64,000 nucleotides of DNA from Gemmatimonadales bacterium. Its GTDB lineage: Bacteria; Gemmatimonadota; Gemmatimonadetes; Gemmatimonadales; GWC2-71-9. Under the pieces are notes generated by a model. The model had not been told where the DNA came from, did no database searches, and saw only the letters and a program-made list of their open reading frames with translations. Shown in pieces: positions 1 to 56,939 of the stretch. The DNA lies in assembly GCA_048499805.1 (NCBI GenBank), contig JASNZF010000004.1:224067-288066 (forward strand), read 5' to 3'. The translations under genes and the position numbers were made by a program. Position 1 is the first letter of the stretch. Every line of letters starts with the position of its first letter.

Positions 1-332
1 GCTACGGCTGGCGCGCGGGCAGCCCGGAGAGCTCCGGCATCGGCGGCTTCTACGACGTGCTCGGCCCGAACAACTACGTCGTGGAGAGCGGGTCGTACGC
101 CAAGCTCCGCGAGGTGAGCCTGACCTACAAGTTCGGCAAGATCGCGGGTGTCGGCGACTGGACCCTGGGCCTGGTCGGCCGGAACATCCTCAAGTTCACC
201 AACTACTCGGGCATGGATCCGGAGGTGGGTGTCAGTGGTGGCAACACGGGCTCGGGCCTGATCAACCAGACCGACAACTTCGACATGCCGCCGCTGCGGT
301 CGTTCACCTTCTCCATTTCCACGCGCTTCTAG
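1..332 (+). CDS. SusC/RagA-family TonB-dependent outer-membrane receptor, C-terminal fragment (5' end is outside the window). Identical to the C-terminus of the susC at 3624..6983.
   Basis: In-frame with ORF 57..332. The translation matches the last ~110 aa of the 1119-aa SusC and ends ...FTFSISTRF, with the terminal aromatic residue typical of TonB-dependent receptors. It lies inside the 3043-bp perfect repeat. Confidence 0.85.
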   Translation, partial: YGWRAGSPESSGIGGFYDVLGPNNYVVESGSYAKLREVSLTYKFGKIAGVGDWTLGLVGRNILKFTNYSGMDPEVGVSGGNTGSGLINQTDNFDMPPLRSFTFSISTRF

Positions 333-344
333 GAGCCATCCAGA

Positions 345-2030
345 ATGATGCGATCCATGATCCGATGCGGGGCGCTGGCCGGAGCGGTGTTGCTCGGGGC
401 CTGCGACCTCGCGGTCGAGAACCGAACCGCGCCGGACACGTCGAAGGTGCTGGCGACGCCAGCGGACGTCGAGGCGCTCCTGGGCGGGCAGTTCCTCCGC
501 CACAACTCGTCACTGTACGGCAGCACGGCGAACGTGTGGGGCATGATGAACGTCATGTCGCACGAGAACTTCAGCAGCCTGTCGAACAACTGCCAGGGCC
601 AGCGCGTGGGCATCCCGCGCGCCAGCAATGACAACGCAGTCGGCAACGGCTGCGCCAGCGAGCAGCGCCGGGTGTACTACATCGACGGCGAAGTGGTCCG
701 GGTGAGCTCGAACATCCTGGCCAAGCTCAACACCGCGGGCTTCACCCTGGGCTCCACGGCCCAGGACCAGCGGGCGCGGGCCTTCGCCAACTTCACCCGG
801 GGCGTGGCCCTGGGCTACCTGGCGATGGTCTACGACTCGGCGGCGATCATCACCCCCGAGAGCAGCACCGAGGATCCGGGCCAACTCTCCGGCTACCAGG
901 ACGTGATGACCGCGGCGCTGGCCTCGCTGGACGCCGCCATCGCGGCGGCCCAGGCGCCGGGCACCGGGACCGGGGGCTTCCCGATCCCGAACGAGTGGTT
1001 CGCCAACACCAATGGCGCGACCACGGCGGCGGAGTTCATCAAGATCGTCCGCAGCTACAAGGCCCGGTTCCGGGCCGGCGTGGCGCGGACCCCGGCCGAG
1101 CGGGCGGCGGTCAACTGGGCGGCGGTGATCGCCGATGCCCAGAACGGGATCACGCAGGACATGAACCTCCGGACCGCCACCACCGCCGGCACCCTGAGCA
1201 ACAGCTGGGTGTCCACCTGGTACAGCTACACGACCTGGCACCAGATGGTGCCGTTCATCATCGGGATGGGCGACGTCTCGGGCAACTACGAGGCGTACAT
1301 CGCGGCCCCCCTGAACGACAAGGGCAAGGACGGCGCGTTCTTCATGGTGACGCCCGACCTGCGCTGGCCGCAGGGGGCCACCCGCGCCGCCCAGCAGGCC
1401 GACTTCTCGGTCACTTCCTGCACCGCCGCCGGTTCCATCTGCAAGCGGGACTTCCGCAACCGGCCGACGGCGAACGACCAGGCCTCGGGCCCGACCTGGG
1501 GCTACTCGAACTACGACCACACCCGGTACTACGCCTGGGACAAGAGTGGCTCGGAGCCCGGTGCGACCAACAACACCGGCCCGTTCCCGTTCATGAAGAA
1601 GGCCGAGATCGACATGCTCCAGGCCGAGGGCCTGATCCGGACCGGGAGCTTCGCGGCCGCGGCGGCGCTGATCAACAACACCCGCGTCGGGCGCGGTGGC
1701 CTGCCGGCGATCACGGCGTTCGACAACACCTCGCCGGTGCCGGGCGGGGCCAACTGCGTGCCCCGGGTGCCCAATTCATCGGGCACGGCGGTGGCCTGCG
1801 GCAACATGATGGAAGCGATGAAGTGGGAAAAGCGGATGGAAACCGCCTATACGCACTTCGGCGGGTGGTTCTTTGACCACCGCGGGTGGGGTGACCTGCC
1901 CGAGGGGACCCCGACCCACTGGGCCCCGCCGTACGAGGACCTCCTGGCGCGCGGGTATGCCAAGGAGGCCGTCTACAGCCTCGGGGGTGGCCTGCCCGGC
2001 AGCGCCGCCAAGGGGACGTACGGCTGGTGA
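345..2030 (+). CDS. SusD/RagB-family nutrient-binding outer-membrane lipoprotein (copy 1, identical to 6996..8681)
   Basis: 561 aa. Signal peptide with lipobox LLGAC. Sits 12 nt downstream of the susC stop, which is the canonical susC-susD arrangement. Size and composition fit the SusD family. Confidence 0.85.
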   Translation: MMRSMIRCGALAGAVLLGACDLAVENRTAPDTSKVLATPADVEALLGGQFLRHNSSLYGSTANVWGMMNVMSHENFSSLSNNCQGQRVGIPRASNDNAVGNGCASEQRRVYYIDGEVVRVSSNILAKLNTAGFTLGSTAQDQRARAFANFTRGVALGYLAMVYDSAAIITPESSTEDPGQLSGYQDVMTAALASLDAAIAAAQAPGTGTGGFPIPNEWFANTNGATTAAEFIKIVRSYKARFRAGVARTPAERAAVNWAAVIADAQNGITQDMNLRTATTAGTLSNSWVSTWYSYTTWHQMVPFIIGMGDVSGNYEAYIAAPLNDKGKDGAFFMVTPDLRWPQGATRAAQQADFSVTSCTAAGSICKRDFRNRPTANDQASGPTWGYSNYDHTRYYAWDKSGSEPGATNNTGPFPFMKKAEIDMLQAEGLIRTGSFAAAAALINNTRVGRGGLPAITAFDNTSPVPGGANCVPRVPNSSGTAVACGNMMEAMKWEKRMETAYTHFGGWFFDHRGWGDLPEGTPTHWAPPYEDLLARGYAKEAVYSLGGGLPGSAAKGTYGW

Positions 2031-2128
2031 TCACCGCCGACGCCGCCCGCCGGTCGCGACCGGCGGGTCGGCGCCACCCGGCCGGCCGTGCAGACGGTCC
2101 TGGCCCTTCCACTTTCATGGAGTGCGTA

Positions 2129-2977
2129 ATGCGACGCCTTTTTCGACTCTCGGCATTGGCTCTGGCCCTGGGCGCTTCGACCGCCTGCCGGCCCGAGACG
2201 ATCATCGAGACTGAAGACATCCCGACGGCGGGCATCCGGTTCGTCAATGCGGTGCCCGACACCTTCGCGCTGGACTTCCGTCCGGTGGACATCGTGGAGA
2301 ACACCCACTTCTACTCGGTGGGGTTCCGCAGCACGACGCTGCTGTACTACAAGAATGCGCGGGCCGGGCAGCGGCAGTTCAAGATCTTCCTGGCCAACCC
2401 GAGCCTGACGGCGCCGGCGGCGGAACAGCAGGCCATCGCGAGCACGGTGGTGGACGAGCTGAACCTGACGCTGGAAGCGGGGAAGAACTACACGGTCATC
2501 ATCTGGGGCTACATGCGGCCGGGCTCGACGCCGGCGAAGCGGGTGACGGTGCTGGAGGACAATCCGGCGGATCCGGGGAGCCAGGTGGCGCTGCGGATCG
2601 TCAACGCGGCCGCGGACCTGGGCGCGGTGGACGGCCGGTTCTACCCGAGCACGGGCACGGCGCCGGCCTCGCCGAACTGGGCGAACGTGGCGGCCCTGAC
2701 GGCGTCGGCGTACGTGAACACGGCGCCGGGCGCGATCAAGGCGAACGTGCGGCTGGCGGGCGGGACGACGGCGCTGTTCACCGACCCGACGCTGCCGGCC
2801 GGGATTGCGGAGACGATCGACATCGACGGCGCGCCGGGCAGCACGCGGGCGGGGACGGGGATGTCGGGGTTCGTCTTCCCGCGGTCGGTGGCGGGCAGCC
2901 GGGCGACGAACTTCACCACGCCGGGGATGTTCTGGGTGTGGGATCGGCGTCCGCCGCGGACCTGCGCGCTCTGCTAG
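2129..2977 (+). CDS. DUF4397-like surface lipoprotein (copy 1). The annotated ORF starts at 2027, but the probable start is the ATG at 2129.
   Basis: The internal Met gives MRRLFRLSALALALGASTAC, a lipoprotein signal. Repeated [IL]R[FI]VNA.PD...DF/RIVNAAADLGAVD motifs are typical of DUF4397 beta-sandwich repeats. It overlaps the susD stop, consistent with a SusE/F-like accessory position. Confidence 0.5.
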   Translation: MRRLFRLSALALALGASTACRPETIIETEDIPTAGIRFVNAVPDTFALDFRPVDIVENTHFYSVGFRSTTLLYYKNARAGQRQFKIFLANPSLTAPAAEQQAIASTVVDELNLTLEAGKNYTVIIWGYMRPGSTPAKRVTVLEDNPADPGSQVALRIVNAAADLGAVDGRFYPSTGTAPASPNWANVAALTASAYVNTAPGAIKANVRLAGGTTALFTDPTLPAGIAETIDIDGAPGSTRAGTGMSGFVFPRSVAGSRATNFTTPGMFWVWDRRPPRTCALC

Positions 2978-3573
2978 GCGGGTCGGCGATCAGCCGCAGC
3001 ACCAGTCGGGCCGCCGGGCACTCGCCCGGCGGCCCGATTGGCATTCGGGGGCTCCGGAGCGGGCCGCCGACGCCCCCCTTGCTGGTCCTCCGTTCCAGTT
3101 GGCTCGTGGCCAGGCAGCGCGACCGGGGGGCTGGACGAAACCTCGCTGGGGCTGTAGGATCAAGGTTCGGCTGAGACAGAGGGTTCTGCGGGTCGTCGCC
3201 GCGCTGGTGGACGATCGTCGGGATCCGAGTGGGGTGGTATTGCTGGGCCGGTCCACGCGGCCGCCCATGCCGGCCCTGTTGTGTGTGGCAAGCGTCCTTT
3301 TGACACAGCCGTGTACCGGGCCGCGTGTCCGTTCGTCACAACCAGAATCCTTCGCGAGCACAAGTTGTTGCTGTACAGGGACTTGCAACGCCCCCATCCG
3401 GGGCATGCTCCCTGCTGTGTTGCAGGTCACCGTATTGTCTCCGCGCCGGGTGACGGGCGCTGAGGCGGCAGGTTTCGTTTCATTGTGAAGCTCACCTCGA
3501 GCCACACGTTTCCCGCCAATTGGCGAGTTCTCCATAGGTTCCAGCGTCACTACCAGGTTTCGTTCGTCCCGGC

Positions 3574-6600: not shown

Positions 6601-6983
6601 CCGCCTACTTCGACCAGGCCGACCAGACGGTCCAGACGGCCAAGCCGGTGGGCTACGGCTGGCGCGCGGGCAGCCCGGAGAGCTCCGGCATCGGCGGCTT
6701 CTACGACGTGCTCGGCCCGAACAACTACGTCGTGGAGAGCGGGTCGTACGCCAAGCTCCGCGAGGTGAGCCTGACCTACAAGTTCGGCAAGATCGCGGGT
6801 GTCGGCGACTGGACCCTGGGCCTGGTCGGCCGGAACATCCTCAAGTTCACCAACTACTCGGGCATGGATCCGGAGGTGGGTGTCAGTGGTGGCAACACGG
6901 GCTCGGGCCTGATCAACCAGACCGACAACTTCGACATGCCGCCGCTGCGGTCGTTCACCTTCTCCATTTCCACGCGCTTCTAG
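3624..6983 (+). CDS. SusC/RagA-family TonB-dependent outer-membrane receptor (full length, 1119 aa)
   Basis: Signal peptide. N-terminal carboxypeptidase-regulatory-like domain (FRGRVLTERGEPIAAAAVGIAELGITTQSNAQGVYTL). TonB box/plug (EEVIVTGV...IESIEVVKGAAGASLYGTRAANGVITIRTKRG). Long beta-barrel ending in ...STRF. It is followed 12 nt later by susD. Confidence 0.95.
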   Translation: MTTFERPRAILRVLLPVLALFGFAAEAHSQATFRGRVLTERGEPIAAAAVGIAELGITTQSNAQGVYTLIVPAARVSGQQVTLAARAIGYRARSTSIALAAGERTIDFTLIQDINKLEEVIVTGVMEGVERSKVPFAVGRVTAEDIPVAAVDPVRALQGKVAGVRIAQTTGYPGSTPEILLRGPTSINASGRGQGPLIIIDDVIMNVGVLTELGGMDIESIEVVKGAAGASLYGTRAANGVITIRTKRGLTGGNDGVRFNVRTEYGFNDMNIDYGIPVNHPLGLDETGKRFCVIVSGTQPCSRTLDINREIMRRNAVAADTIRTGQSVLYAAPTGTELRNVYQANIWPGQYYNQVAQLMTRSPSILTNVDATGRVGNVSFYVSGNYTDEAGALTVLNGVQNKRARVNLDYDARSDLKISVSTFADKLNDDNDGFNFGGLLRGMLPGVDQLMRDSLGRAPLVTGGSGYRPTGNGGGNLVYGPENNIAYRESTRFLGSITARYFPTDWATFEATAGYDTRARQDVDITPSGTRSTSISAATNKGNMSINNFHDESVNAALSATFRSQLGEELSGKLSFRGLYDENNFNSVNTAGQVFTVKDINTLGNTTTNKSNSSSITTIKNVGLFAGASLDYKDRYIVEGSFRYDGSSLFGAGNRWSPFGRISAVWNVAREPFWNVGFMDEFRLRASRGTAGTTPPFSAQYETYSVSGTSVTLGQAGNRLIKPETTTEVEVGTDFTLFGKVGFEVTYAHAVTRDQILPVSTAASLGFSTQWQNAGTLDNKTIELGVNLPIVNSSTLFWQMRGTWDRTRTHITELFVPDFIYSGGTGQGTGSFFYMTANTEVQNGFPLNRYGNIYGRAFYKTCGDLPVSVQPDCGPGKAYQRDSNGWVVWTGAGNSIGDGITKNLWSTTLPASESPWNYALTWGHPIVDRPLAGEPGERVGKNQIIGNVFPDFRFTFTNDIQYKKLTLYTLLDATIGHEINNQGEGWGLLDLSSAYFDQADQTVQTAKPVGYGWRAGSPESSGIGGFYDVLGPNNYVVESGSYAKLREVSLTYKFGKIAGVGDWTLGLVGRNILKFTNYSGMDPEVGVSGGNTGSGLINQTDNFDMPPLRSFTFSISTRF

Positions 6984-6995
6984 GAGCCATCCAGA

Positions 6996-8681
6996 ATGAT
7001 GCGATCCATGATCCGATGCGGGGCGCTGGCCGGAGCGGTGTTGCTCGGGGCCTGCGACCTCGCGGTCGAGAACCGAACCGCGCCGGACACGTCGAAGGTG
7101 CTGGCGACGCCAGCGGACGTCGAGGCGCTCCTGGGCGGGCAGTTCCTCCGCCACAACTCGTCACTGTACGGCAGCACGGCGAACGTGTGGGGCATGATGA
7201 ACGTCATGTCGCACGAGAACTTCAGCAGCCTGTCGAACAACTGCCAGGGCCAGCGCGTGGGCATCCCGCGCGCCAGCAATGACAACGCAGTCGGCAACGG
7301 CTGCGCCAGCGAGCAGCGCCGGGTGTACTACATCGACGGCGAAGTGGTCCGGGTGAGCTCGAACATCCTGGCCAAGCTCAACACCGCGGGCTTCACCCTG
7401 GGCTCCACGGCCCAGGACCAGCGGGCGCGGGCCTTCGCCAACTTCACCCGGGGCGTGGCCCTGGGCTACCTGGCGATGGTCTACGACTCGGCGGCGATCA
7501 TCACCCCCGAGAGCAGCACCGAGGATCCGGGCCAACTCTCCGGCTACCAGGACGTGATGACCGCGGCGCTGGCCTCGCTGGACGCCGCCATCGCGGCGGC
7601 CCAGGCGCCGGGCACCGGGACCGGGGGCTTCCCGATCCCGAACGAGTGGTTCGCCAACACCAATGGCGCGACCACGGCGGCGGAGTTCATCAAGATCGTC
7701 CGCAGCTACAAGGCCCGGTTCCGGGCCGGCGTGGCGCGGACCCCGGCCGAGCGGGCGGCGGTCAACTGGGCGGCGGTGATCGCCGATGCCCAGAACGGGA
7801 TCACGCAGGACATGAACCTCCGGACCGCCACCACCGCCGGCACCCTGAGCAACAGCTGGGTGTCCACCTGGTACAGCTACACGACCTGGCACCAGATGGT
7901 GCCGTTCATCATCGGGATGGGCGACGTCTCGGGCAACTACGAGGCGTACATCGCGGCCCCCCTGAACGACAAGGGCAAGGACGGCGCGTTCTTCATGGTG
8001 ACGCCCGACCTGCGCTGGCCGCAGGGGGCCACCCGCGCCGCCCAGCAGGCCGACTTCTCGGTCACTTCCTGCACCGCCGCCGGTTCCATCTGCAAGCGGG
8101 ACTTCCGCAACCGGCCGACGGCGAACGACCAGGCCTCGGGCCCGACCTGGGGCTACTCGAACTACGACCACACCCGGTACTACGCCTGGGACAAGAGTGG
8201 CTCGGAGCCCGGTGCGACCAACAACACCGGCCCGTTCCCGTTCATGAAGAAGGCCGAGATCGACATGCTCCAGGCCGAGGGCCTGATCCGGACCGGGAGC
8301 TTCGCGGCCGCGGCGGCGCTGATCAACAACACCCGCGTCGGGCGCGGTGGCCTGCCGGCGATCACGGCGTTCGACAACACCTCGCCGGTGCCGGGCGGGG
8401 CCAACTGCGTGCCCCGGGTGCCCAATTCATCGGGCACGGCGGTGGCCTGCGGCAACATGATGGAAGCGATGAAGTGGGAAAAGCGGATGGAAACCGCCTA
8501 TACGCACTTCGGCGGGTGGTTCTTTGACCACCGCGGGTGGGGTGACCTGCCCGAGGGGACCCCGACCCACTGGGCCCCGCCGTACGAGGACCTCCTGGCG
8601 CGCGGGTATGCCAAGGAGGCCGTCTACAGCCTCGGGGGTGGCCTGCCCGGCAGCGCCGCCAAGGGGACGTACGGCTGGTGA
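6996..8681 (+). CDS. SusD/RagB-family nutrient-binding outer-membrane lipoprotein (copy 2)
   Basis: Identical to 345..2030. Lipobox LLGAC. Immediately downstream of the full-length susC. Confidence 0.9.
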   Translation: MMRSMIRCGALAGAVLLGACDLAVENRTAPDTSKVLATPADVEALLGGQFLRHNSSLYGSTANVWGMMNVMSHENFSSLSNNCQGQRVGIPRASNDNAVGNGCASEQRRVYYIDGEVVRVSSNILAKLNTAGFTLGSTAQDQRARAFANFTRGVALGYLAMVYDSAAIITPESSTEDPGQLSGYQDVMTAALASLDAAIAAAQAPGTGTGGFPIPNEWFANTNGATTAAEFIKIVRSYKARFRAGVARTPAERAAVNWAAVIADAQNGITQDMNLRTATTAGTLSNSWVSTWYSYTTWHQMVPFIIGMGDVSGNYEAYIAAPLNDKGKDGAFFMVTPDLRWPQGATRAAQQADFSVTSCTAAGSICKRDFRNRPTANDQASGPTWGYSNYDHTRYYAWDKSGSEPGATNNTGPFPFMKKAEIDMLQAEGLIRTGSFAAAAALINNTRVGRGGLPAITAFDNTSPVPGGANCVPRVPNSSGTAVACGNMMEAMKWEKRMETAYTHFGGWFFDHRGWGDLPEGTPTHWAPPYEDLLARGYAKEAVYSLGGGLPGSAAKGTYGW

Positions 8682-8779
8682 TCACCGCCGACGCCGCCCG
8701 CCGGTCGCGACCGGCGGGTCGGCGCCACCCGGCCGGCCGTGCAGACGGTCCTGGCCCTTCCACTTTCATGGAGTGCGTA

Positions 8780-9628
8780 ATGCGACGCCTTTTTCGACTC
8801 TCGGCATTGGCTCTGGCCCTGGGCGCTTCGACCGCCTGCCGGCCCGAGACGATCATCGAGACTGAAGACATCCCGACGGCGGGCATCCGGTTCGTCAATG
8901 CGGTGCCCGACACCTTCGCGCTGGACTTCCGTCCGGTGGACATCGTGGAGAACACCCACTTCTACTCGGTGGGGTTCCGCAGCACGACGCTGCTGTACTA
9001 CAAGAATGCGCGGGCCGGGCAGCGGCAGTTCAAGATCTTCCTGGCCAACCCGAGCCTGACGGCGCCGGCGGCGGAACAGCAGGCCATCGCGAGCACGGTG
9101 GTGGACGAGCTGAACCTGACGCTGGAAGCGGGGAAGAACTACACGGTCATCATCTGGGGCTACATGCGGCCGGGCTCGACGCCGGCGAAGCGGGTGACGG
9201 TGCTGGAGGACAATCCGGCGGATCCGGGGAGCCAGGTGGCGCTGCGGATCGTCAACGCGGCCGCGGACCTGGGCGCGGTGGACGGCCGGTTCTACCCGAG
9301 CACGGGCACGGCGCCGGCCTCGCCGAACTGGGCGAACGTGGCGGCCCTGACGGCGTCGGCGTACGTGAACACGGCGCCGGGCGCGATCAAGGCGAACGTG
9401 CGGCTGGCGGGCGGGACGACGGCGCTGTTCACCGACCCGACGCTGCCGGCCGGGATTGCGGAGACGATCGACATCGACGGCGCGCCGGGCAGCACGCGGG
9501 CGGGGACGGGGATGTCGGGGTTCGTCTTCCCGCGGTCGGTGGCGGGCAGCCGGGCGACGAACTTCACCACGCCGGGGATGTTCTGGGTGTGGGATCGGCG
9601 TCCGCCGCGGACCTGCGCGCTCTGCTAG
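8780..9628 (+). CDS. DUF4397-like surface lipoprotein (copy 2)
   Basis: Identical to 2129..2977. Confidence 0.5.
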   Translation: MRRLFRLSALALALGASTACRPETIIETEDIPTAGIRFVNAVPDTFALDFRPVDIVENTHFYSVGFRSTTLLYYKNARAGQRQFKIFLANPSLTAPAAEQQAIASTVVDELNLTLEAGKNYTVIIWGYMRPGSTPAKRVTVLEDNPADPGSQVALRIVNAAADLGAVDGRFYPSTGTAPASPNWANVAALTASAYVNTAPGAIKANVRLAGGTTALFTDPTLPAGIAETIDIDGAPGSTRAGTGMSGFVFPRSVAGSRATNFTTPGMFWVWDRRPPRTCALC

Positions 9629-9789
9629 GCGGGTCGGCGATCAGCCGCAGCACCAGTCGGGCCGCCGGGCACTCGCCCGGCGGCCCGATTGGCGCTCAGG
9701 CCCCTGCAGGCGCAGTGCCGGCCGTCCCGCGCTCCACGCCGCGAGCTGGAACGACCGGACTCCCCACGGCGGCGACAAAGGAGTCGTCC

Positions 9790-46211: not shown

Positions 46212-47144
46212 ATGCCAATGACGCAGGTGGCCGTTGTGCAGGCCAGGGTAGCGCCGGACCTGGCCACCGGACTGACACGCACCGCCGAGCTGACTGCCGA
46301 GGCTGCCGGTGCCGGGGCCACCCTGGTGGTGTTTCCGGAGACCTGGCTCCCGGGCTATCCCGCCTGGCTCGATGTCTGTCGAGACGTCGCGCTCTGGGAT
46401 CATGGACCGGTCAAGCAGGTCTTTGCCGCGATGGCGAGCCAGAGCGTGGTGGTGGCTGGTGCCTCAGGGGCAGCGCTGGGACGAGTGGCGAGCGATGCCG
46501 GGGTGACCCTGGTGGTGGGGGTGATCGAGCGACTGGAGGCCGGACCCGGGCGTAGTACCCTCTACAACTCCCTGCTGACCTATGGTCCGGACGGCCGCCT
46601 GCTCAATCACCATCGCAAGCTGGTTCCCACCTACACGGAGCGGATGGTCTGGGGCATTGGCGATGCCGAGGGTCTCCGGGCGGTGGACACACCGGTCGGG
46701 AGGGTCGGGGGGCTGATCTGCTGGGAGCACTGGATGCCGCTGGCTCGGCAGGCGATGCATGACTCGGGGGAGGACATCCACGTGGCAGTCTGGCCCACCG
46801 CGCACGAGATGCACCAGGTGGCCAGCCGGCAGTACGCCTTCGAGGGGCGTTGCTTCGTGCTGGCCGCCGGGAGCATTTCCCACGGGAGCGACCTGCCGGC
46901 CCAGCTCCAGCCGGATCCTGTCAGGGTGGCTGGCCCGGATGCGAGGGTACTGCGCGGGGGGAGTGCCATCATCGGCCCGGACGGGAACTACCTGGCAGGG
47001 CCCGTGTACGACGAGCCGACGATTCTCTACGCCGCGCTGGACCTCGACCGGGTGCGCCAGGAGGCGATGACCCTGGACGTGAGCGGGCACTACAGCCGCC
47101 CTGATTGCCTGGCACTGTCGGTCCACCGGGCGCGGCGGACTTGA
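46212..47144 (+). CDS. Nitrilase / carbon-nitrogen hydrolase family enzyme
   Basis: Catalytic Glu-Lys-Cys triad in the conserved contexts [20 protein letters not shown] and [11 protein letters not shown]. 310 aa. Confidence 0.85.
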
Positions 47145-49554: not shown

Positions 49555-51354
49555 TTGAACGCGCCCGCCAAGGAAGCCCCCATGCCTGGTTCCCGATCCC
49601 TGACCCTGGTGGTCCTCGGCCTGCTCGCGGGATGCACTCCTGCCGGTCCCGATGCCGACCTCCTCATCGTCAACGCCCGGATCTGGACCGGCGATTCGGC
49701 AGCGCCGTGGGCCCAGGCACTTGCCGTGCGTGGGGACCGGCTCCTCGCGGTGGGGGACCGGGCGGCCGCCAACCGGCACCGCGGGGGCCAGACCCGGGTC
49801 ATCGATGCCGCTGGGCGATTGATCACGCCGGGTTTCATCGACAACCACACCCACTTCGGACAGGCTGGCGCGCTGCTCCTGGGGGTGAACCTGCTGGACG
49901 TGGCCACCGCCGACTCCCTTGTGGCCAGGGTCCGTGGAGCGCGGGACCGGCTTCCCGATGGCGCCTGGGTGACCGGCGGCGACTGGGGCGCCTATGAGGA
50001 TTGGGAGGCCGGGAGCAGCGGGAGCGTGTCGACGACTGCTTCCGGGGAGCGGTTCAGCCCGGAGCGCAGCCTGATCGATTCGATCACCCCGGCCACCGGG
50101 GTCCTGCTGCAGCGCTGGGACCGGTCGGCGTTCCTGGCAAATGGGGTGGCGCTGGCGGCGGCGGGATTGGACTGTGGCGCCTCGGTCGAGGGGCTCGAGT
50201 GTGTGGACGGGGTGCCCACCGGACGGGTGGCAGGTGTGGCGCTGGCCCGGGTGCGGCAGGCCATGCCGGCCAAGCACGTTGAACAGCGGCTGCGTGAGGC
50301 CCGGGTGGCGCTGGCACACCTGGCCGAACTCGGTGTCACCGGCATCAATGACATCACCGGCCCGGATCAGCTGCCGGTCTACCATGCCCTGAAGGAAAGG
50401 GGCGAACTCACCGTCCGGGTATATGCGCGGCCCACCCTCGACAAATGGGACGAGCTCACGGCGGTGGGAATTCCGCACGGATTCGGCGACGCCTGGCTGC
50501 GCATCGGCGGGCTCAAGGGGTTCGTGGACGGCATTCAGGGCAACTCGACGGCCCGGTTCTACGAACCGCAGCTCCACTCCGGGCTGCGGGGCAGCTGGCG
50601 TGATTCGACCAATACCGGCGCCAGTTCGGGTCCCGGGTCGGGGATGGAGCCGGCCGGGAACATGCAACGCAACCTCCTCGGCGCGGACCGGGCCGGCCTC
50701 TGGCCGCAAGTCCATGCGATCGGGGACGAGGCCATCGACACCCTGCTCACCCTCTACGAGCAGGTGATGGAGGAGAACCCGGCCCGGGAGCGTCGCTATC
50801 GCATCATCCACTCCCAGGTCCTGCGCGGCCCCGAGGTGGCCCGGCGATACGCGCGGAACGGCATCATCGCGGAGGTGCAGCCGTACCATGCGATCGATGA
50901 CATGCGCTGGATGGAGGAGCGGATCGGGGAGCGCTCGCGCTGGGCGTATGCCTTCCGGACCCTCCATGACGCGGGCGTCCTGCTGACCTTTGGATCCGAT
51001 TGGCCGGGGACCAACGCCTCCTGGTACACGGCCAACCCGATGCAGATCCTCTACGCCGCCCTGACGCGCCAGACCCTGGACGGCGAGCCGGCCGGGGGAT
51101 GGTATCCCGAGGAACGGCTCGACCTCGAGGTGGCCCTCCGGGCCTACACCGCCAACAATGCCTGGGCCGAGGGGGCCGAAGCGGACAAGGGGCGGCTGCG
51201 GACGGGGATGCTGGCCGATTTCGTGATGCTGGACCGCAATCTCTTCGAGATCCCGCCCGAGGCGATCAAGGATGTCCGGGTGCTCCTGACGGTGGTTGGA
51301 GGCCGGATCGTGCATGCCCAGGAGGGGCTGGAGGCCAGCGACACCGTGCGATAG
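49555..51354 (+). CDS. Amidohydrolase-3-family metal-dependent hydrolase, lipoprotein
   Basis: Lipoprotein signal (MPGSRSLTLVVLGLLAGC; the alternative start is 49582). ...LIVNARIWTGD...VIDAAGRLITPGFIDNHTHF... and the C-terminal ...LTFGSDWPG...ADFVMLD... are Amidohydro_3 hallmarks. Confidence 0.8.
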   Translation: MNAPAKEAPMPGSRSLTLVVLGLLAGCTPAGPDADLLIVNARIWTGDSAAPWAQALAVRGDRLLAVGDRAAANRHRGGQTRVIDAAGRLITPGFIDNHTHFGQAGALLLGVNLLDVATADSLVARVRGARDRLPDGAWVTGGDWGAYEDWEAGSSGSVSTTASGERFSPERSLIDSITPATGVLLQRWDRSAFLANGVALAAAGLDCGASVEGLECVDGVPTGRVAGVALARVRQAMPAKHVEQRLREARVALAHLAELGVTGINDITGPDQLPVYHALKERGELTVRVYARPTLDKWDELTAVGIPHGFGDAWLRIGGLKGFVDGIQGNSTARFYEPQLHSGLRGSWRDSTNTGASSGPGSGMEPAGNMQRNLLGADRAGLWPQVHAIGDEAIDTLLTLYEQVMEENPARERRYRIIHSQVLRGPEVARRYARNGIIAEVQPYHAIDDMRWMEERIGERSRWAYAFRTLHDAGVLLTFGSDWPGTNASWYTANPMQILYAALTRQTLDGEPAGGWYPEERLDLEVALRAYTANNAWAEGAEADKGRLRTGMLADFVMLDRNLFEIPPEAIKDVRVLLTVVGGRIVHAQEGLEASDTVR

Positions 51355-51519
51355 CGCCTGGCGGGCGTGACGGGCCGCACCCAGTCGGCCAAGTCCCTGC
51401 AGCCCAAACGGTTACACGGTGTTTACCCGGCAGGGGTGGTGTCGCTCCCCGCGCTCCGCTAAACTCCCATGTTGTGAGGGAGACGCAGGTCAGGGTACCG
51501 TAACCGAAGGAGGCTTGGC

Positions 51520-51771
51520 ATGGATTGGTCAGATGTGCTGCGGGACGCAGGTCGGCAGAACCGGAGGGTCCGGATTCGTTTCTCGTATCCCGGGGCCTCG
51601 GATGGCAATGTGGAGTACGAGCGGGAGATGGAACCCTACAAGATCGAAAACGGCCAGCTGGTGGCCTATTCATATTACCGCGGCGGGTTTCGCACGGTCG
51701 ACATCGACCGGATCATCAATGTCCAGCTGCGCCCGGAATCGTTCGAGCCCCGGCGCGCGGTCGAGCTGTAG
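51520..51771 (+). CDS. Stand-alone WYL-domain protein (83 aa)
   Basis: RRVRIRFSYPGASDGNVEYEREMEPYKIENGQLVAYSYYRGGFRTVDIDRIINVQLRPESFEPR follows the WYL consensus (rrvrirY..g..teR.veP..l.....WYLvAy....g..RtFrldRI.sv.l..e.F). Strong RBS AAGGAGG 7 nt upstream. Confidence 0.65.
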   Translation: MDWSDVLRDAGRQNRRVRIRFSYPGASDGNVEYEREMEPYKIENGQLVAYSYYRGGFRTVDIDRIINVQLRPESFEPRRAVEL

Positions 51772-52279
51772 GACCGCCCTGAGCGACACCGCAGCTCCCG
51801 TCACCGTTCGTCCCGCTACGGTCGCGGACGTTCCCCAGATCCTGGCCTTCATCCGGGGGCTCGCCGAATACGAGCGGCTCCCGGACCAGGTCGTGGCCAC
51901 CGAGGCCCGGCTGCGTGCCACCCTCTTCGGGCCCACCCCGGCGGCCGAGGTGCTCCTGGCGTACCTGGGCGCCGAGCCGGCGGGCTTCGCGCTGTTCTTC
52001 CAGAACTACTCGACCTTCCTGGCCCGCCCCGGGATCTACCTCGAGGACCTCTTTGTCCTGCCGGAGTACCGGGGACGGGGCATCGGCAAGGTCCTGCTTC
52101 GCGCCCTGGCCCGCCTTGCGGTCGAGCGCGACTGTGGACGGCTGGAATGGTCGGTGCTCGACTGGAACGCCGACGCCATCGGCTTCTACCGGAAGCTCGG
52201 CGCGGTTGCGATGGATGACTGGACGGTCTTCCGGTTGACGGGCAATGCGCTGAGCGACCTGGCCGAGGAGGGTTTCTGA
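51719..52279 (+). CDS. GNAT-family N-acetyltransferase. The start is uncertain: the first in-frame ATG, at 51719, lies 53 nt inside the WYL gene.
   Basis: GNAT core VRPATVADVPQILAFIRGLAEYERL...FVLPEYRGRGIGKVLLRALARLAVERDCGRLEWSVLDWNADAIGFYRKLGA. No ATG, GTG or TTG lies between the WYL stop (51771) and the conserved GNAT N-terminus. Confidence 0.6.
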   Translation: MSSCARNRSSPGARSSCRTALSDTAAPVTVRPATVADVPQILAFIRGLAEYERLPDQVVATEARLRATLFGPTPAAEVLLAYLGAEPAGFALFFQNYSTFLARPGIYLEDLFVLPEYRGRGIGKVLLRALARLAVERDCGRLEWSVLDWNADAIGFYRKLGAVAMDDWTVFRLTGNALSDLAEEGF

Positions 52280-52572
52280 TGCGATACGAAGTCCGGCTCG
52301 AGGCCGATCCCTCGATGGCACCCGCCATCGAGGCCTACATGCGTGGCACCCACATTCCCGAGATCATGGCCACCGGCTGCTTCCAGCGGGCCCACTTCGA
52401 CCGGGCGGAATCGGGGGTGTTCCGCACCACCTACGTGGCAGCGACCCGGGCCGATTTCGACCGCTACATCGCCGAGCACTTCGCCCGGTTCCGCGAGGCG
52501 TTCCTGGTCCAGTTCCCGTCGGGCATCATTCCCGCCCGGGAGCTGTTCACTGAACTGGAAGCGTGGCCCTGA
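52279..52572 (+). CDS. DUF4286-family protein (97 aa)
   Basis: MRYEVRLEADPSMAPAIEAYMRGTHIPEIMATGCF...FRTTYVAATRADFDRYIAEHFARFREAFLVQF matches the DUF4286 pattern (MIxYxVxVxVDxxIExEWLxWMxxEHIPxVMATGxF). The start overlaps the GNAT stop (TGATG). Confidence 0.65.
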   Translation: MRYEVRLEADPSMAPAIEAYMRGTHIPEIMATGCFQRAHFDRAESGVFRTTYVAATRADFDRYIAEHFARFREAFLVQFPSGIIPARELFTELEAWP

Positions 52573-52573
52573 G

Positions 52574-53461
52574 GTGGCACGATCATCCCGGAAGGCCGCG
52601 TCCCCCACCCCCACCCACCGTTCCCCCCGGGTCCGGCGCTCGGCCGAGCCGCCGCCGCCTCGTCCGAAGCTCAAGCGCAAGGCGTACGAGCAGGAGCTGG
52701 AGCGGCTGCAGGGGGAGCTCGTCAAGCTGCAGTACTGGGTCAAGGAGACCCGGGCCAAGGTTGTGGTGGTGTTCGAGGGCCGGGACGGGGCGGGGAAAGG
52801 TGGGGTCATCAAGCGGATCCTGGAGCGGGTCAGCCCACGGGTGTTCCGGGTGGAGGCACTGCCGGCGCCCGATGAGCGTGAGCGCAGCCAGATGTACATG
52901 CAGCGGTACATCTCCCGTCTCCCTGCCGGCGGTGAGGTGGTGATCTTCGATCGCAGCTGGTACAACCGGCTGGGGGTGGAGAAGGTGATGGGGTTCTGCA
53001 CCGACCAGGAGTACCGGGCGTTCCTGCACGACTGCCCCTGGCACGAGGCGGAGATGATCGAGTCGGGGATCCACCTGGTGAAGTACTGGCTGGATGTCAG
53101 CCCCGAGGAACAGACCCGGCGGTTTCGCGAGCGGATGACCGATCCGCGCAAGATCTGGAAGCTCGGTCCGATCGACCTCGAGGCCCACCGCCGGTGGTGG
53201 GAGTACACCGCGGCCCGAGAGGCGATGTTCGCGGCCACCGACACCGAGGTCGCGCCCTGGTACGTGATCCCGAGCGACGACAAGCGCCGGGCCCGGATCG
53301 ATTGCATTGGCCACCTCCTGAGCGTGCTACCCTATGCCGACCTGACCGGGGGAAAGGTGCCCGCCCGCCTGCCGGCGCGGCGGCCCAGGCCCCGGGGAAT
53401 GCGGGAGTCGGGGCATCGGTATCGGTGGGTGCTGGGTGGGGAGGTGAGAGGTGAGAGGTGA
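52574..53461 (+). CDS. ppk2: Polyphosphate kinase 2 (PPK2 family). Probable GTG start 1 nt after the DUF4286 stop.
   Basis: PPK2 core (KLKRKAYEQELERLQGELVKLQYWVKETRAKVVVVFEGRDGAGKGGVIKRILERVSPRVFRVEALPAPDERERSQMYMQRYISRLPAGGEVVIFDRSWYNR...) with Walker A GRDGAGKGG. The ORF track begins at 52343 but is out of frame with DUF4286 there. The last 11 codons are read from the GGTRAGA repeat. Confidence 0.8.
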   Translation: MARSSRKAASPTPTHRSPRVRRSAEPPPPRPKLKRKAYEQELERLQGELVKLQYWVKETRAKVVVVFEGRDGAGKGGVIKRILERVSPRVFRVEALPAPDERERSQMYMQRYISRLPAGGEVVIFDRSWYNRLGVEKVMGFCTDQEYRAFLHDCPWHEAEMIESGIHLVKYWLDVSPEEQTRRFRERMTDPRKIWKLGPIDLEAHRRWWEYTAAREAMFAATDTEVAPWYVIPSDDKRRARIDCIGHLLSVLPYADLTGGKVPARLPARRPRPRGMRESGHRYRWVLGGEVRGER

Positions 53462-53515
53462 GGGGTGAGAGGTAAGAGGTAAGAGGTAAGAGGTAAGAAG
53501 GGAGAAGGGAGAAGT
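53430..53515 (+). repeat. Purine-rich heptamer array (GGTRAGA)n overlapping the 3' end of ppk2
   Basis: ggtggggaggtgagaggtgagaggtgaggggtgagaggtaagaggtaagaggtaagaggtaagaagggagaagggagaag. Confidence 0.8.
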
Positions 53516-53666
53516 CTGCCGTAGGCCTGGCGCGGGGGGGGGGCGTGGCGTGGTTCGGCTGGCCTTGCGGGGGGTCGGGCCGGGCGGTAGCCTCCTCGTG
53601 CGATTCGGCCGGCTCCCAGTCGCCGCCCCGCCATCGTTCCGCGCACCTGCCCCAGGGAACTCGCCC

Positions 53667-56600
53667 ATGTCCGCCGATCTCTGCGACGTCATCCGCGGCA
53701 CCCTCGGCGACTCGTACCGGGTCGGCGCGGAACTGACGGGCGGGGGGATGTCCCGGGTCTATACGGCGCAGGACCTGACTCTCGACCGGCGGATCGTCAT
53801 CAAGGTGCTCCCGCCGGAGTTGTGCGGCGTGATGAACGTCGAGCGCTTCAAGCGCGAGATCCGGGTGGCGGCCGGCCTCCAGCATCCCCACATCGTCCCG
53901 GTCCTCAGCACCGGCGAGATGGAGGGCATGCCCTACTACACCATGCCGTTCGTGGAGGGAGAGACGCTCGGGGAGCGGCTCCACCGGACGGGGCCGCTGG
54001 CCCCGCGGGAGGCGATCGGCATCCTCCGCGACGTGGCCCGGGCACTGGCCTACGCCCACGACCGGCAGATCATCCACCGGGACATCAAGCCGGACAACAT
54101 CATGCTGTCCGGGGGCAGTGCGGTGGTCACCGACTTCGGCATCGCGAAGGCGATCAGCCTGTCGCGCGACGTCTCCGGTGGCCACACCCTGACCCAGATC
54201 GGGACGGTGATGGGCACGCCGGCCTACATGGCCCCGGAGCAGGTGGCCGGCGATCCGTCGCTGGATCACCGGGCCGACATCTATGCCTTCGGCTGCCTGG
54301 CCTACGAGGTGCTGACGGGACGGCCCCCGTTCGTCGAGGCGTCGATGCACCAGATGTTCGCGGCGCACCTGTCCGCAGTCCCTGATGAGCTGGAGGCCGT
54401 GGCGCCCGGGGTGCCGGGGTCGTTCGCGGCGCTGGTGATGCAGTGCCTGGCAAAGCAGCCGGCCGAGCGTCCGCCGTCGGCCCATGTCCTCCTGGACCGG
54501 ATCGAGATGCTCACCAGCGGGGGGGAGCTCGCGCTGGCGGCCCCCGCCACGCCCGGGCGGGGAAGGGCCATCCCGGTGGGATCGGGTGCCCCGGTGGCGC
54601 TGCCCCGGATCCTGTCCACCCGGGCCGGACTGTGGGTCGTGCTGCTGCTGGTGGCGCTCGCCAACCTGGTGCAGACCACCCTCGACGAACCACTCGCCAG
54701 GCTGACCGGGGTGCTCGCCCGGCGCGACGCGGTGTCCCGGGCGATGCTGGTGCTCGAGTCGGGGGTGCCATTCGCGGGCCAGGACATGACCAGCACGCTC
54801 GGCGCCTACAGCGCGACCGTGGCGTACTTCTTCCTCTTTCCCGCGCTGCTCGTGGCGATCGGCGTGGCGCTGGCCCGGCGCCCCGCCGTGTCGGCGCTTC
54901 GCACCCTGGTGGTGGCCGTCGCCTGCAACTACGGGATCAGCCTCCTGTTCTTCCTCTTCTTCCCGGTGGCGGAGCGATGGTCGGTTCCCGAGTCGGGCGC
55001 CACCCTGCTCTCGAACCGCTGGAGTGTCCGGCTGATCGAGTGGGTGCGGCCGATGAGCGGGCTGGACAACAGCTTTCCCAGCTTCCACGTCTCGCTGATG
55101 GTGGTCGGGGTCCTGCTCTGCTTCCTGTTCGGGCTGCGGCATCGCTGGGTGGCGGCCTTCGGCGGCCTGGCGGTGATCCTGTCGACCTACCTGCTCGGCA
55201 TCCACTGGATCGCAGACATCCTCGCCGGCCTCGCCGTCGGCGTGATCAGCGTGGCGGTGGCGGCGCGGTTCGAGCGCCGGCTCGCGACGGCGGCCCCCTC
55301 GACGCCGCGGCAGGGTAACCCGGTGCGCTCCCTGGCGATCCTGGCGCTGCTGGTGCTGCCGGGACCCCTGGCCGGGCAGAACTCCCTCACCTTCTCGGCG
55401 GTGGCGCTCGACGCCGAGACCCGGCTGGCCGACGACCGCCTGCGGCGCTACCTGGAGGAGACGGCCGGGGTGGCGCTGGTGGCGGAGGATGCGGCGGAGT
55501 ACAGCCAGGTGATCAACTACCTGGCCACCCGGCGCCCGGGGGATGGCTCGTACCTCGCCCGGGTCACCCCCTACGCACTGGTGGCCGCCGAGCTCCTGGG
55601 CGCCAACGTGCAGGTGCTCGGGACCTATGTCAGCGAGGCCACCACTCGCACGACCTACCAGTCCTACTTCGTGGTGGCGCGCGACCGGTTCCCGCGACCA
55701 CCGGAGCTCCAGGACCTGGTGCGGATGCTGCGCACGGCGCCCGCGGCGATGCGCTTCGGGTACCACAGCGAATTCAGCACCTCGAGCTACTTCCTGCCGG
55801 CGCTGTTCTTCCGGGAGAACGACATCTTCGACATGGCGTCCGGCTCCGAGGAGGCGATCGCCATCCGTGCGCGGCAAGTGCCCGGGGGGAGCAGCGACCT
55901 GGTGCGGGCGGTGGCCGCCGGCGACCTGGACCTCGCGGCGGTGTGGAGCGGCACGGTGGCGGGTTTCCAGCAGACCCCGGAGCTCGCGGCGATCGCCGCC
56001 CGGGTCTACTTCGTTCCCCTTCCGGAGATGCTGCCCAATGACCTGCTGGTGGCGGCCGGCGCGCTGGATTCCACGGTCGGGGCCCGGATCCGGGCCGCGC
56101 TGACGGCGATGCCGGACGGGACGATCCGCACCGGGGACTTCCGGACCTGGAAGCACATCAACGATGCCCCGGAGGCGCGCACCGCGCTGGCGAACCTCCG
56201 GTGGCTGGCGCGCGCCGCCCCGGCTCCCGTGACCGTGGATGTCCAGCGTGCCGGTCCCGATCGGACGGCGATTCCCGACGCCTACCTCCTGGCCGTGCGG
56301 CAGGCGGTCCGCCTGACCGGGATGGAGTTCGTCAACTTCGACCGGGACTACCACCGGCAGCAGGACTATGTGCTGACCCTGGCACCATCGCATGACGGCT
56401 CGGTCATCCTGCGCACCCGGATCGTCGGCGCCGATGCGTTCGACCAGGAGTTCCCGATCAGCTTCCGGGACACCGACGGGCTGATGGCCCGGGTCGCGGA
56501 GGTGCTCCGCTCCCGGGTGCACCGGGTGCGCTACCTGTGGCCGTACCGGACCACCCCGCCGACGATCCTGCGCGACATGCCGCTCGATCTCCGGCCCGGC

Positions 56601-56939
56601 ACCACGGTCTCCGCCCGGATGATCCGGTGGCTCGACACCCGCCGGCATGCCTACACCCAGGGCGCCGAGTTCGAGGCCCAGATCGCCGCCGCCGACCACA
56701 GCAAGGTGGAGCTCTCGCCCAGCTTCGTGGAGGCGGCCGATGCCGATGGCTTCGGCTTCAACCCGATGAGCAACATCTCCTACCGGATCATCCTCCCCCG
56801 GGAAGTGGAGGAGCCGCTCCTCTTCCGGATCCTGACGGTCGCGCTGGTGGGCTGCCTGGCGCTGGCCGCGATCGCGGCAATGGTGGACCTGAGGGGAGAG
56901 GCGAGAAGTGAGAAGCAAGAAGCAAGAGGTAAGAGGTAG
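53667..56939 (+). CDS. Large transmembrane Ser/Thr protein kinase (1090 aa) with a PAP2-like membrane domain, a PhnD/SsuA-like periplasmic binding domain and a C-terminal TM anchor
   Basis: Kinase domain (GGGMSRVYTA, VIKVLPPE, HRDIKPDNIML, DFGIAKA, GTPAYMAPE). Multi-TM block with degenerate PAP2 motifs (RLIEWVRP; FPSFHVSL; STYLLGIHWIADILAG). Periplasmic region with PhnD-like pattern (...VQVLGTYVSEATTRTTYQSYFVVARD...AMRFGYHSEFSTSSYFLPALFF...AAVWSGTVAGF...YFVPLPEMLPNDLLVAAGALD). Terminal TM LLFRILTVALVGCLALAAIAAMV. Confidence 0.8.
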   Translation: MSADLCDVIRGTLGDSYRVGAELTGGGMSRVYTAQDLTLDRRIVIKVLPPELCGVMNVERFKREIRVAAGLQHPHIVPVLSTGEMEGMPYYTMPFVEGETLGERLHRTGPLAPREAIGILRDVARALAYAHDRQIIHRDIKPDNIMLSGGSAVVTDFGIAKAISLSRDVSGGHTLTQIGTVMGTPAYMAPEQVAGDPSLDHRADIYAFGCLAYEVLTGRPPFVEASMHQMFAAHLSAVPDELEAVAPGVPGSFAALVMQCLAKQPAERPPSAHVLLDRIEMLTSGGELALAAPATPGRGRAIPVGSGAPVALPRILSTRAGLWVVLLLVALANLVQTTLDEPLARLTGVLARRDAVSRAMLVLESGVPFAGQDMTSTLGAYSATVAYFFLFPALLVAIGVALARRPAVSALRTLVVAVACNYGISLLFFLFFPVAERWSVPESGATLLSNRWSVRLIEWVRPMSGLDNSFPSFHVSLMVVGVLLCFLFGLRHRWVAAFGGLAVILSTYLLGIHWIADILAGLAVGVISVAVAARFERRLATAAPSTPRQGNPVRSLAILALLVLPGPLAGQNSLTFSAVALDAETRLADDRLRRYLEETAGVALVAEDAAEYSQVINYLATRRPGDGSYLARVTPYALVAAELLGANVQVLGTYVSEATTRTTYQSYFVVARDRFPRPPELQDLVRMLRTAPAAMRFGYHSEFSTSSYFLPALFFRENDIFDMASGSEEAIAIRARQVPGGSSDLVRAVAAGDLDLAAVWSGTVAGFQQTPELAAIAARVYFVPLPEMLPNDLLVAAGALDSTVGARIRAALTAMPDGTIRTGDFRTWKHINDAPEARTALANLRWLARAAPAPVTVDVQRAGPDRTAIPDAYLLAVRQAVRLTGMEFVNFDRDYHRQQDYVLTLAPSHDGSVILRTRIVGADAFDQEFPISFRDTDGLMARVAEVLRSRVHRVRYLWPYRTTPPTILRDMPLDLRPGTTVSARMIRWLDTRRHAYTQGAEFEAQIAAADHSKVELSPSFVEAADADGFGFNPMSNISYRIILPREVEEPLLFRILTVALVGCLALAAIAAMVDLRGEARSEKQEARGKR

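Follow-up and report, generated by a model that had tools for sequence, protein, structure and literature searches.

A conserved CTG just past a mini-WYL stop codon as a candidate start for an acetyltransferase gene in a tightly packed Gemmatimonadales operon

How is a gene translated when it is intact and has no start codon near the point where its product must begin? The question is raised by a cluster of four genes, WYL, GNAT, DUF4286 and PPK2, in a 64,000-nt stretch of DNA (hereafter the window) from a Gemmatimonadales metagenome-assembled genome (MAG), whose nearest matching loci are found in Gemmatimonadota MAGs. The first gene encodes a small stand-alone WYL-domain protein (mini-WYL), the second a GNAT acetyltransferase. 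The conserved V-R-P-A-T segment near the N-terminus of the acetyltransferase is read from position 51806, in the +1 frame relative to WYL and 34 nt (11 codons plus 1 nt) past the WYL stop, and the window has no ATG, GTG or TTG between that stop and V-R-P-A-T. An earlier examination of the nucleotides alone (the sequence-only reading) had noticed both the missing start and the +1 frame, which stand, and had put the distance at 12 codons, which does not. The best explanation of the comparative data is that the four genes make up a single closely packed operon in a Gemmatimonadales clade and that the GNAT is a separate protein, not fused to WYL. With about even confidence, we propose that GNAT translation initiates at an in-frame CTG (51779-51781) and is coupled to termination of WYL translation.

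The orthologous locus was compared in 13 distinct lineages, all from Gemmatimonadota (loci are designated below by numbers beginning with L). At the level of the aligned genes, the comparison establishes that gene order is kept, that canonical starts are missing, that the CTG is conserved and that changes in length differ on its two sides. Wherever the WYL protein is at least 66% identical to that of the window, the GNAT gene lies directly downstream of it, and the order WYL-GNAT-(DUF4286)-PPK2 recurs across these loci. PPK2 follows GNAT or DUF4286 in L001, L002-L004, L006/L007 and L024/L025. The contigs of L008 and L009-L013 end within the gene that comes after DUF4286, for which there is no Pfam record. 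Two lineages, L002-L005 and L024/L025, lack DUF4286, and the flanking genes are somewhat variable. The frame in which GNAT follows WYL varies from lineage to lineage. It is +1, as in the window, in L008, L009-L014, L015/L017, L021, L024/L025, L027 and L016, which are independent assemblies; it is 0 behind a single TAG in L001, L002-L005, L006/L007 and L020, and +2 behind a TGA in L026. Frames 0 and +1 are intermixed inside one and the same WYL subgroup.

Canonical starts are missing well beyond the window. In L021, L027, L020, L006 and L002, the open reading frame (ORF) of GNAT contains no ATG, GTG or TTG anywhere upstream of the I/V-R-P-A-T motif, and in L008 and L024 such codons occur in this frame only at least 66 codons upstream. 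Other lineages are better provided: L009 and L001 have GTG codons near the GNAT N-terminus, L016 combines a TAA stop for WYL with a GGAGG and a GTG of its own for GNAT, and L026 combines a TGA stop with a TTG start. In the window itself, the nearest canonical start in the GNAT frame is an ATG 60 nt upstream of the CTG and inside the WYL gene (51719-51721), where the sequence-only reading had also located it. Public gene predictions reflect this state of affairs. They cut the GNAT down, begin it within the D-V-P-L-I-L segment or extend it into WYL; it is because canonical starts are absent that gene callers emit GNATs of only 108-132 amino acids (aa). A housekeeping-type GNAT thus repeatedly goes without a canonical start in this clade, as judged from the aligned loci, and the gene is mis-called in every lineage that has no canonical start near the conserved N-terminus.

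The genes are nonetheless in good order. The GNAT is full length and intact in all lineages, and its N-terminal part is evidently under purifying selection: over the first 45 codons, comparison with the window gives ratios of nonsynonymous to synonymous divergence (pN/pS) of 0.13-0.60, at pS values of 0.18-0.63. Since these codons are under purifying selection, the N-terminus should be translated, and an initiation site has to be sought upstream of it.

The most conspicuous candidate is the CTG. Of the 12 lineages in which the WYL stop is TAG or TAA, 11 have an in-frame CTG 3, 6 or 7 nt past it, and in the window and L008 it is the sole start codon of translation table 11 between the WYL stop and the conserved N-terminus. 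The chance of finding an in-frame CTG within the first three codons is about 7% per independent lineage. Where present, the codon is invariant and never replaced by CTC or TTG, whereas the flanking positions are 36-91% conserved. As a control, we considered the columns of the WYL and GNAT proteins that are invariably leucine in the same lineages: the codon was CTG throughout in one of 18 such columns, and a single codon was used in two of 18. Spacing is equally informative. The distances from stop to CTG (3, 6 and 7 nt) include values that are not multiples of three, while the distance from the CTG to the I/V codon is either 8 or 9 codons. Because length changes upstream of the CTG break the frame and those downstream of it keep it, the constraint on the reading frame appears to start at the CTG and not at the stop. 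The next codon specifies Ser, Thr, Ala or Glu, and the x-T-I/V residues ahead of the conserved Arg resemble the N-termini of normally initiated homologues (MSALTIR, MITIR). Other positions behave differently: the codon two before the Arg drifts among GTG, GTC, GTA, CTC, ATC and CTG, and the I/V codon among GTT, GTC, GTG, ATT and ATC. Such drift at the alternative positions is what ordinary synonymous change would produce, and it points to no fixed start there.

The ribosome-binding signals of the two genes are also very unequal. The WYL ATG has a GGAGG-type site ahead of it in each of the 12 lineages examined, with predicted anti-Shine-Dalgarno pairing of -8.4 to -10.7 kcal/mol, against -2.2 to -5.1 kcal/mol for Shine-Dalgarno (SD) sequences upstream of GNAT. 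In the window, the best SD-like site of GNAT is a TAGGA just upstream of the CTG (-3.9 kcal/mol, versus -10.7 for WYL); the strong ribosome-binding site that the sequence-only reading had ascribed to WYL is indeed there.

From these properties we infer that the CTG is the codon in use and that initiation at it depends on WYL termination. Ribosomes finishing at the WYL TAG would restart at the CTG 7 nt downstream, and the AGG within TAGG may serve as a minimal SD sequence. GNAT would then be made only if WYL is translated, at a small fraction of the WYL level, and translation of DUF4286 and of PPK2 would follow through the 1-nt overlap and the 1-nt gap that separate the remaining genes. In Escherichia coli and Haloferax, reinitiation is efficient when the start lies between -8 and +10 nt of the stop and is lost by about 20-38 nt (PMC10666635). 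The CTG, 3-7 nt past the stop, falls within this range, in which a separate SD sequence is not needed. As to the codon, CUG is one of four near-cognates that initiate at about 1-2% of the AUG level in E. coli (bioRxiv 10.1101/063800).

Several observations weigh against this proposal. The L002-L005 lineage has no CTG and yet keeps an intact GNAT; the only near-cognate there (CTG, ATT, ATC and ATA were considered) is an ATC at the I/V position. Kinship among the lineages means that the CTG statistics overstate their independence, and the invariance of the codon has an empirical control p of only about 0.06-0.11. CUG initiates poorly in E. coli (bioRxiv 10.1101/063800), though figures from E. 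coli may not be those of Gemmatimonadota. Moreover, the window does have its canonical ATG upstream of the CTG, and usable GTG or TTG codons are found near the N-terminus in L009, L001, L016, L026 and the lineages in which the protein is called from M-T-I-R. Lineages with such a codon nearby may simply use it.

The upstream ATG deserves attention in its own right. It is the sole canonical start within about 160 nt and the one chosen by public annotation (P0022, a 186-aa "GNAT family N-acetyltransferase"). If it were the start, which we consider rather unlikely and which would apply to this genome only, the first 20 or so residues of the protein would come from the 3' end of the WYL gene read in the +1 frame. 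An equivalent ATG occurs in L015/L017, in L016 and in the P0025 lineage. However, the position is occupied by AAC in L009 and in the closest relative, L008, whose WYL protein is 96% identical; an internal ATG is impossible in the four frame-0 lineages, and L021 and L027 are devoid of any canonical start. The triplet stems from a T-ending Asn or Asp codon of WYL that is also present in frame-0 L020, where it is useless to GNAT, and T-ending codons are not enriched in +1 relative to frame-0 lineages, so there is no sign of selection for an internal ATG. Finally, no SD sequence precedes the ATG, which sits inside a strongly translated ORF. One could also envision an initiation that bypasses the CTG altogether, either a restart near the post-stop codon that needs no start codon or initiation at the ATC, ATT or GTN of I/V-R-P-A-T. 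Unrecycled ribosomes can resume reading just past a stop, as described for recycling-deficient conditions and not as a normal route (PMC9955659). An ATC is all that is available in the L002 lineage, seven further lineages have ATC or ATT at the I/V position, and AUC and AUU rank with CUG among the near-cognate codons (bioRxiv 10.1101/063800). On the other hand, this position reads GTT or GTC in the window, L008 and L001. It is 27-34 nt away from the stop, a distance at which coupling is weak (PMC10666635), and no SD sequence is associated with it. The residues just upstream of the I/V codon are conserved in the manner of normal N-termini, and the invariant CTG would be left unexplained. Altogether we regard initiation independent of the CTG as distinctly unlikely.

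The sequence-only reading had supposed that a single-base frameshift would fuse WYL to GNAT. This could come about naturally, through recoding at the WYL stop, or artificially, through an error. In the former case a WYL-GNAT fusion would be made by a +1 shift at CTG-TAG-G in the clade of the window and by read-through of the TAG in clades where the genes are in frame. Four lineages do have GNAT in frame behind a single TAG, three of them startless (L020, L006 and L002) and one with GTG only (L001); a G follows the stop in every +1 lineage, and wherever the 40 codons preceding the conserved N-terminus are free of canonical starts, the stop is TAG. Still, sister lineages would have to rely on different mechanisms, and the frames of 0, +1 and +2 fit neither read-through in the window nor a programmed shift of the prfB type. 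The P-site codons CUG, CUC, UUG and UUC are unable to re-pair in the +1 frame. Folding of the aligned junctions with RNAalifold revealed no conserved RNA structure (-9.3 kcal/mol; the covariation term is positive, and the linker is left empty), nor did Rfam return a match at E values up to 1. TAG is an ordinary stop, used by 17 of the 38 long ORFs of the window; reassignment of TAG was considered as well and rejected on this ground. The window contains no tRNA gene and hence no suppressor tRNA, while L016 (TAA, with its GGAGG and GTG) and L026 (TGA, +2 frame, TTG) plainly encode separate proteins. Natural fusions did not turn up either: no WYL domain occurs among the 120 listed matches to the GNAT, as to length and placement of the WYL domain, none of the 60 WYL relatives retrieved from 1.84 billion representative proteins fits a fusion, and a Pfam scan of 10 of the larger WYL relatives disclosed no GNAT domain. 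Recoding is therefore highly improbable, and the frameshift fusion is not borne out. As for a frameshift introduced in sequencing or assembly, or a gene in decay, the window does come from a MAG; however, independent assemblies from different samples have the same +1 frame and spacing, which argues that the arrangement is no assembly error. The exact WYL protein is present on 29 contigs, and the GNAT is everywhere intact and constrained. An artefact or a decaying gene is, in our opinion, scarcely credible.

Most likely, then, the clade-specific, translationally coupled operon outlined by these comparisons is a variant of two known phenomena, non-canonical initiation and termination-reinitiation. 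AUU start codons conserved in bacteria are known from infC and pcnB. Both genes keep a weak near-cognate start across species, perhaps because the level of the product needs to stay low, and the same may hold here. The start of infC and pcnB is AUU, whereas here it would be CTG, as deduced from comparative data, and comes with no known regulatory logic like the autoregulation of IF3. In the classic cases of termination-reinitiation (trpB-trpA, the genes for coat and lysis proteins in RNA phages, and pairs studied in E. coli; PMC10666635), the downstream gene likewise lacks an effective SD sequence and its start lies within -8 to +10 nt of the stop; the typical 1-nt overlap, TGATG, is present in the rest of this operon. 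The proposed GNAT start differs in that the restart codon is CTG instead of ATG, GTG or TTG and would lie 3-7 nt past the stop instead of overlapping it. The likeness to the prfB (RF2) site, CUU-UGA-C, is more superficial. There too the downstream +1 frame begins at a stop followed by a purine or C. Unlike prfB, this locus has no slippery P-site codon and no SD stimulator at the required distance of 3 nt, its frame relation is not conserved, and the GNAT product needs no upstream part. If initiation at the CTG is true, the locus would present a naturally conserved bacterial gene that needs a CUG codon and termination of an upstream gene, of which few cases are documented. It would do so in a phylum, Gemmatimonadota, in which translation has hardly been studied; the hosts of the locus are Gemmatimonadales, bacteria of soil and sludge, with L009-L014 coming from activated sludge and soil.

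The features of the locus are collected in Table 1. Tight packing of the cluster had been anticipated by the sequence-only reading and is plain to see: the TGA of GNAT and the ATG of DUF4286 have one base in common (TGATG, 52277-52281), and a single nucleotide separates the TGA of DUF4286 from the GTG of PPK2. A scan of positions 51200-53700 found no promoter-like site, and the three terminator-like matches in the same interval all fall within the WYL ORF, near the number expected from shuffled sequence. In the lineages that lack DUF4286 (L002-L005 and L024/L025), the gap between GNAT and PPK2 measures 95-110 nt. The first of these is both a lineage without DUF4286 and the sole one without the conserved CTG.

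Table 1. Coordinates of the WYL-GNAT-DUF4286-PPK2 locus in the window
Feature	Position	Strand	Remarks
AAGGAGG, SD sequence of WYL	51507-51513	+	6 nt before the ATG; anti-SD duplex -10.7 kcal/mol
mini-WYL, 83 aa, MCL4864466.1	51520-51771	+	Pfam WYL; TAG stop 51769-51771
ATG in the GNAT frame, within the WYL gene	51719-51721	+	start of the NCBI 186-aa GNAT annotation (P0022)
In-frame CTG, proposed GNAT initiation codon	51779-51781	+	7 nt past the WYL stop
GNAT acetyltransferase, 166 aa if started at the CTG	51779-52279	+	Pfam Acetyltransf_1; conserved core from 51806
DUF4286 protein, 97 aa	52279-52572	+	Pfam DUF4286; TGA 52570-52572
Class I PPK2, single-domain	52574-53461	+	Pfam PPK2 and TIGR03707; GTG start

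Searches with profile hidden Markov models recovered all four domains that the sequence-only reading had named. The 83-aa ORF matches Pfam WYL (PF13280) with 26.8 bits, above the gathering threshold of 21.8, so that the assignment on which that reading depended holds. All homologues of the mini-WYL protein match PF13280; they form 21 clusters at 52-96% identity, are nearly all 82-83 aa long and are conserved through the final residue. The AlphaFold2 (AF2) model has a pLDDT of 89.7, with one helix and a barrel occupying the entire chain, and its top Foldseek matches in the Protein Data Bank (PDB) are BrxR, PafBC, CapW and DriD (TMq 0.68-0.74, TM about 0.73). The mini-WYL protein thus has the WYL beta-barrel fold in common with these regulators. 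Whereas they carry a winged helix-turn-helix (HTH) and a WCX dimerisation domain, it consists of the WYL domain alone: WYL was the sole Pfam domain detected in the 83 aa, with neither HTH nor WCX, which sets the protein apart from the HTH-WYL-WCX transcription regulators such as BrxR, CapW, PafBC and YafY. The profile search of 1.84 billion representative proteins that yielded the 60 relatives found mostly stand-alone proteins of 76-112 aa, and thereby defines a family of small WYL proteins without DNA-binding domains.

The GNAT matches Pfam Acetyltransf_1 (E 6.5e-21) and, over residues 3-161, that is, its full length, the PDB entries 2fe7 from Pseudomonas aeruginosa and 12jc, a thialysine acetyltransferase, with E values of about 1e-49; the human SSAT1/2 proteins follow at 1e-24 to 1e-29. 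By this full-length homology it is a member of the SSAT / thialysine-diamine acetyltransferase family, from which its substrate is predicted. The family is large, with more than 8000 homologues across phyla at up to about 70% identity. Unlike the GNAT of the window, its members have a normal Met 1-5 residues ahead of I/L-R-x-A and do not adjoin WYL, DUF4286 or PPK2. The DUF4286 protein (PF14114; 43.8 bits against a gathering threshold of 25.8, E 3e-11) is modelled by AF2 with a pLDDT of 86.7 as a dimeric ferredoxin-like barrel of the ABM type, nearest to PA0709 and NE2512, and no fusion protein was seen among 10 homologues. PPK2 has one PPK2 domain (Pfam E 3e-96, residues 33-256). Its classification, which the sequence-only reading had left to be made, is class I: TIGR03707 scores 346 bits over a cut-off of 301.8, and the class II and III models stay under theirs. 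Going by family only, the operon adds to the mini-WYL protein a small ABM-like one, a polyphosphate-dependent NDP kinase and probably an acetyltransferase of the diamine/thialysine type.

How far does the association of these genes extend? The sequence-only reading had proposed looking for conserved co-occurrence across genomes, and the outcome is mixed: the order is kept within one clade of Gemmatimonadota, while none of four GNAT relatives checked (in Longimicrobium, Bryobacterales and other Gemmatimonadales) has WYL, DUF4286 or PPK2 nearby. These relatives, 71-74% identical, have normal Met starts. Conversely, behind remoter mini-WYL genes (L022 and L023, 52-56% identical) one finds unrelated genes. 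Because GNAT relatives elsewhere lack the partners and distant mini-WYL genes keep other company, the linkage seems to be confined to one clade and could be due to common descent. In L022 (about 776-1063), the distant mini-WYL gene precedes one for a small Cys-rich protein (CxxC...CxxC), with no GNAT; in L023 (downstream of 3177), it precedes a membrane protein gene, again with no GNAT. Stand-alone WYL proteins would accordingly have variable partners. At yet another locus, L031 (2362-4519; GCA_011390885.1), a GNAT orthologue of 73% identity lies 46 nt behind an Amidohydro_3 gene; it starts normally, and WYL is absent. Amidohydro_3 and GNAT are also the families that flank the WYL gene in the window. 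As the two adjoin each other without WYL in L031, the comparison suggests that the mini-WYL gene was inserted between them.

WYL domains had led the sequence-only reading to think of a defence or stress-signalling module. This idea receives no backing from the locus. PADLOC returned only generic WYL accessory models and no match for GNAT, DUF4286 or PPK2; the neighbours in the window are metabolic and regulatory (a DcuC transporter, a CN-hydrolase, TetR, YceI, an amidohydrolase, a Ser/Thr kinase and an NMO-type enzyme), and the GNAT relatives occur without the partners. Both PADLOC and the neighbourhood thus place the cluster outside the anti-phage defence systems. Since the mini-WYL protein is an 83-aa WYL domain devoid of a DNA-binding domain, it may instead be a partner of the acetyltransferase, and one could speculate that it acts as a ligand-sensing one. 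Subunits of complexes are overrepresented among tightly coupled gene pairs (PMC10666635), and, given this enrichment and the missing DNA-binding domain, a WYL-GNAT complex is a reasonable idea by analogy. A stronger version would be that mini-WYL and acetyltransferase are obligatorily co-produced, either as a lineage-specific recoded fusion or as a complex of WYL sensor and SSAT in which CUG reinitiation sets expression; this is a decidedly long shot. The WYL sensor of such a complex would perhaps bind a nucleic acid or a nucleotide and thereby control the acetyltransferase.

Some features of the neighbourhood may be added. The SSAT-type acetyltransferase is preceded, at a distance of a few genes, by a CN-hydrolase gene both in the window (46212-47141) and in L001 (1008-2796), and L001 also has a DDAH/arginine-deiminase-type enzyme upstream of the acetyltransferase; judging from these gene families, the two neighbours may hint at a metabolism of polyamines or arginine derivatives. 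At the far left of the window, a perfect direct repeat of 3,042 bp (1-3042 and 6652-9693, spacing 6,651 bp) doubles a 565-codon ORF (333-2030 = 6984-8681), and may reflect either a recent tandem duplication or an error of assembly. At the other end of the operon, positions 53441-53514 are made up of tandem 7-nt units, about eight copies of GAGGTGA/GAGGTAA and then about three of AGAAGGG. This array starts in the last codons of PPK2, includes its TGA and takes up a large part of the spacer ahead of the Ser/Thr kinase gene. The latter (53550-56939) encodes a protein of 1129 aa in which a Ser/Thr kinase domain is joined to a PAP2 phosphatase-like membrane domain and to a periplasmic domain of the phosphonate-binding kind, an unusual architecture to find adjoining a polyphosphate kinase.

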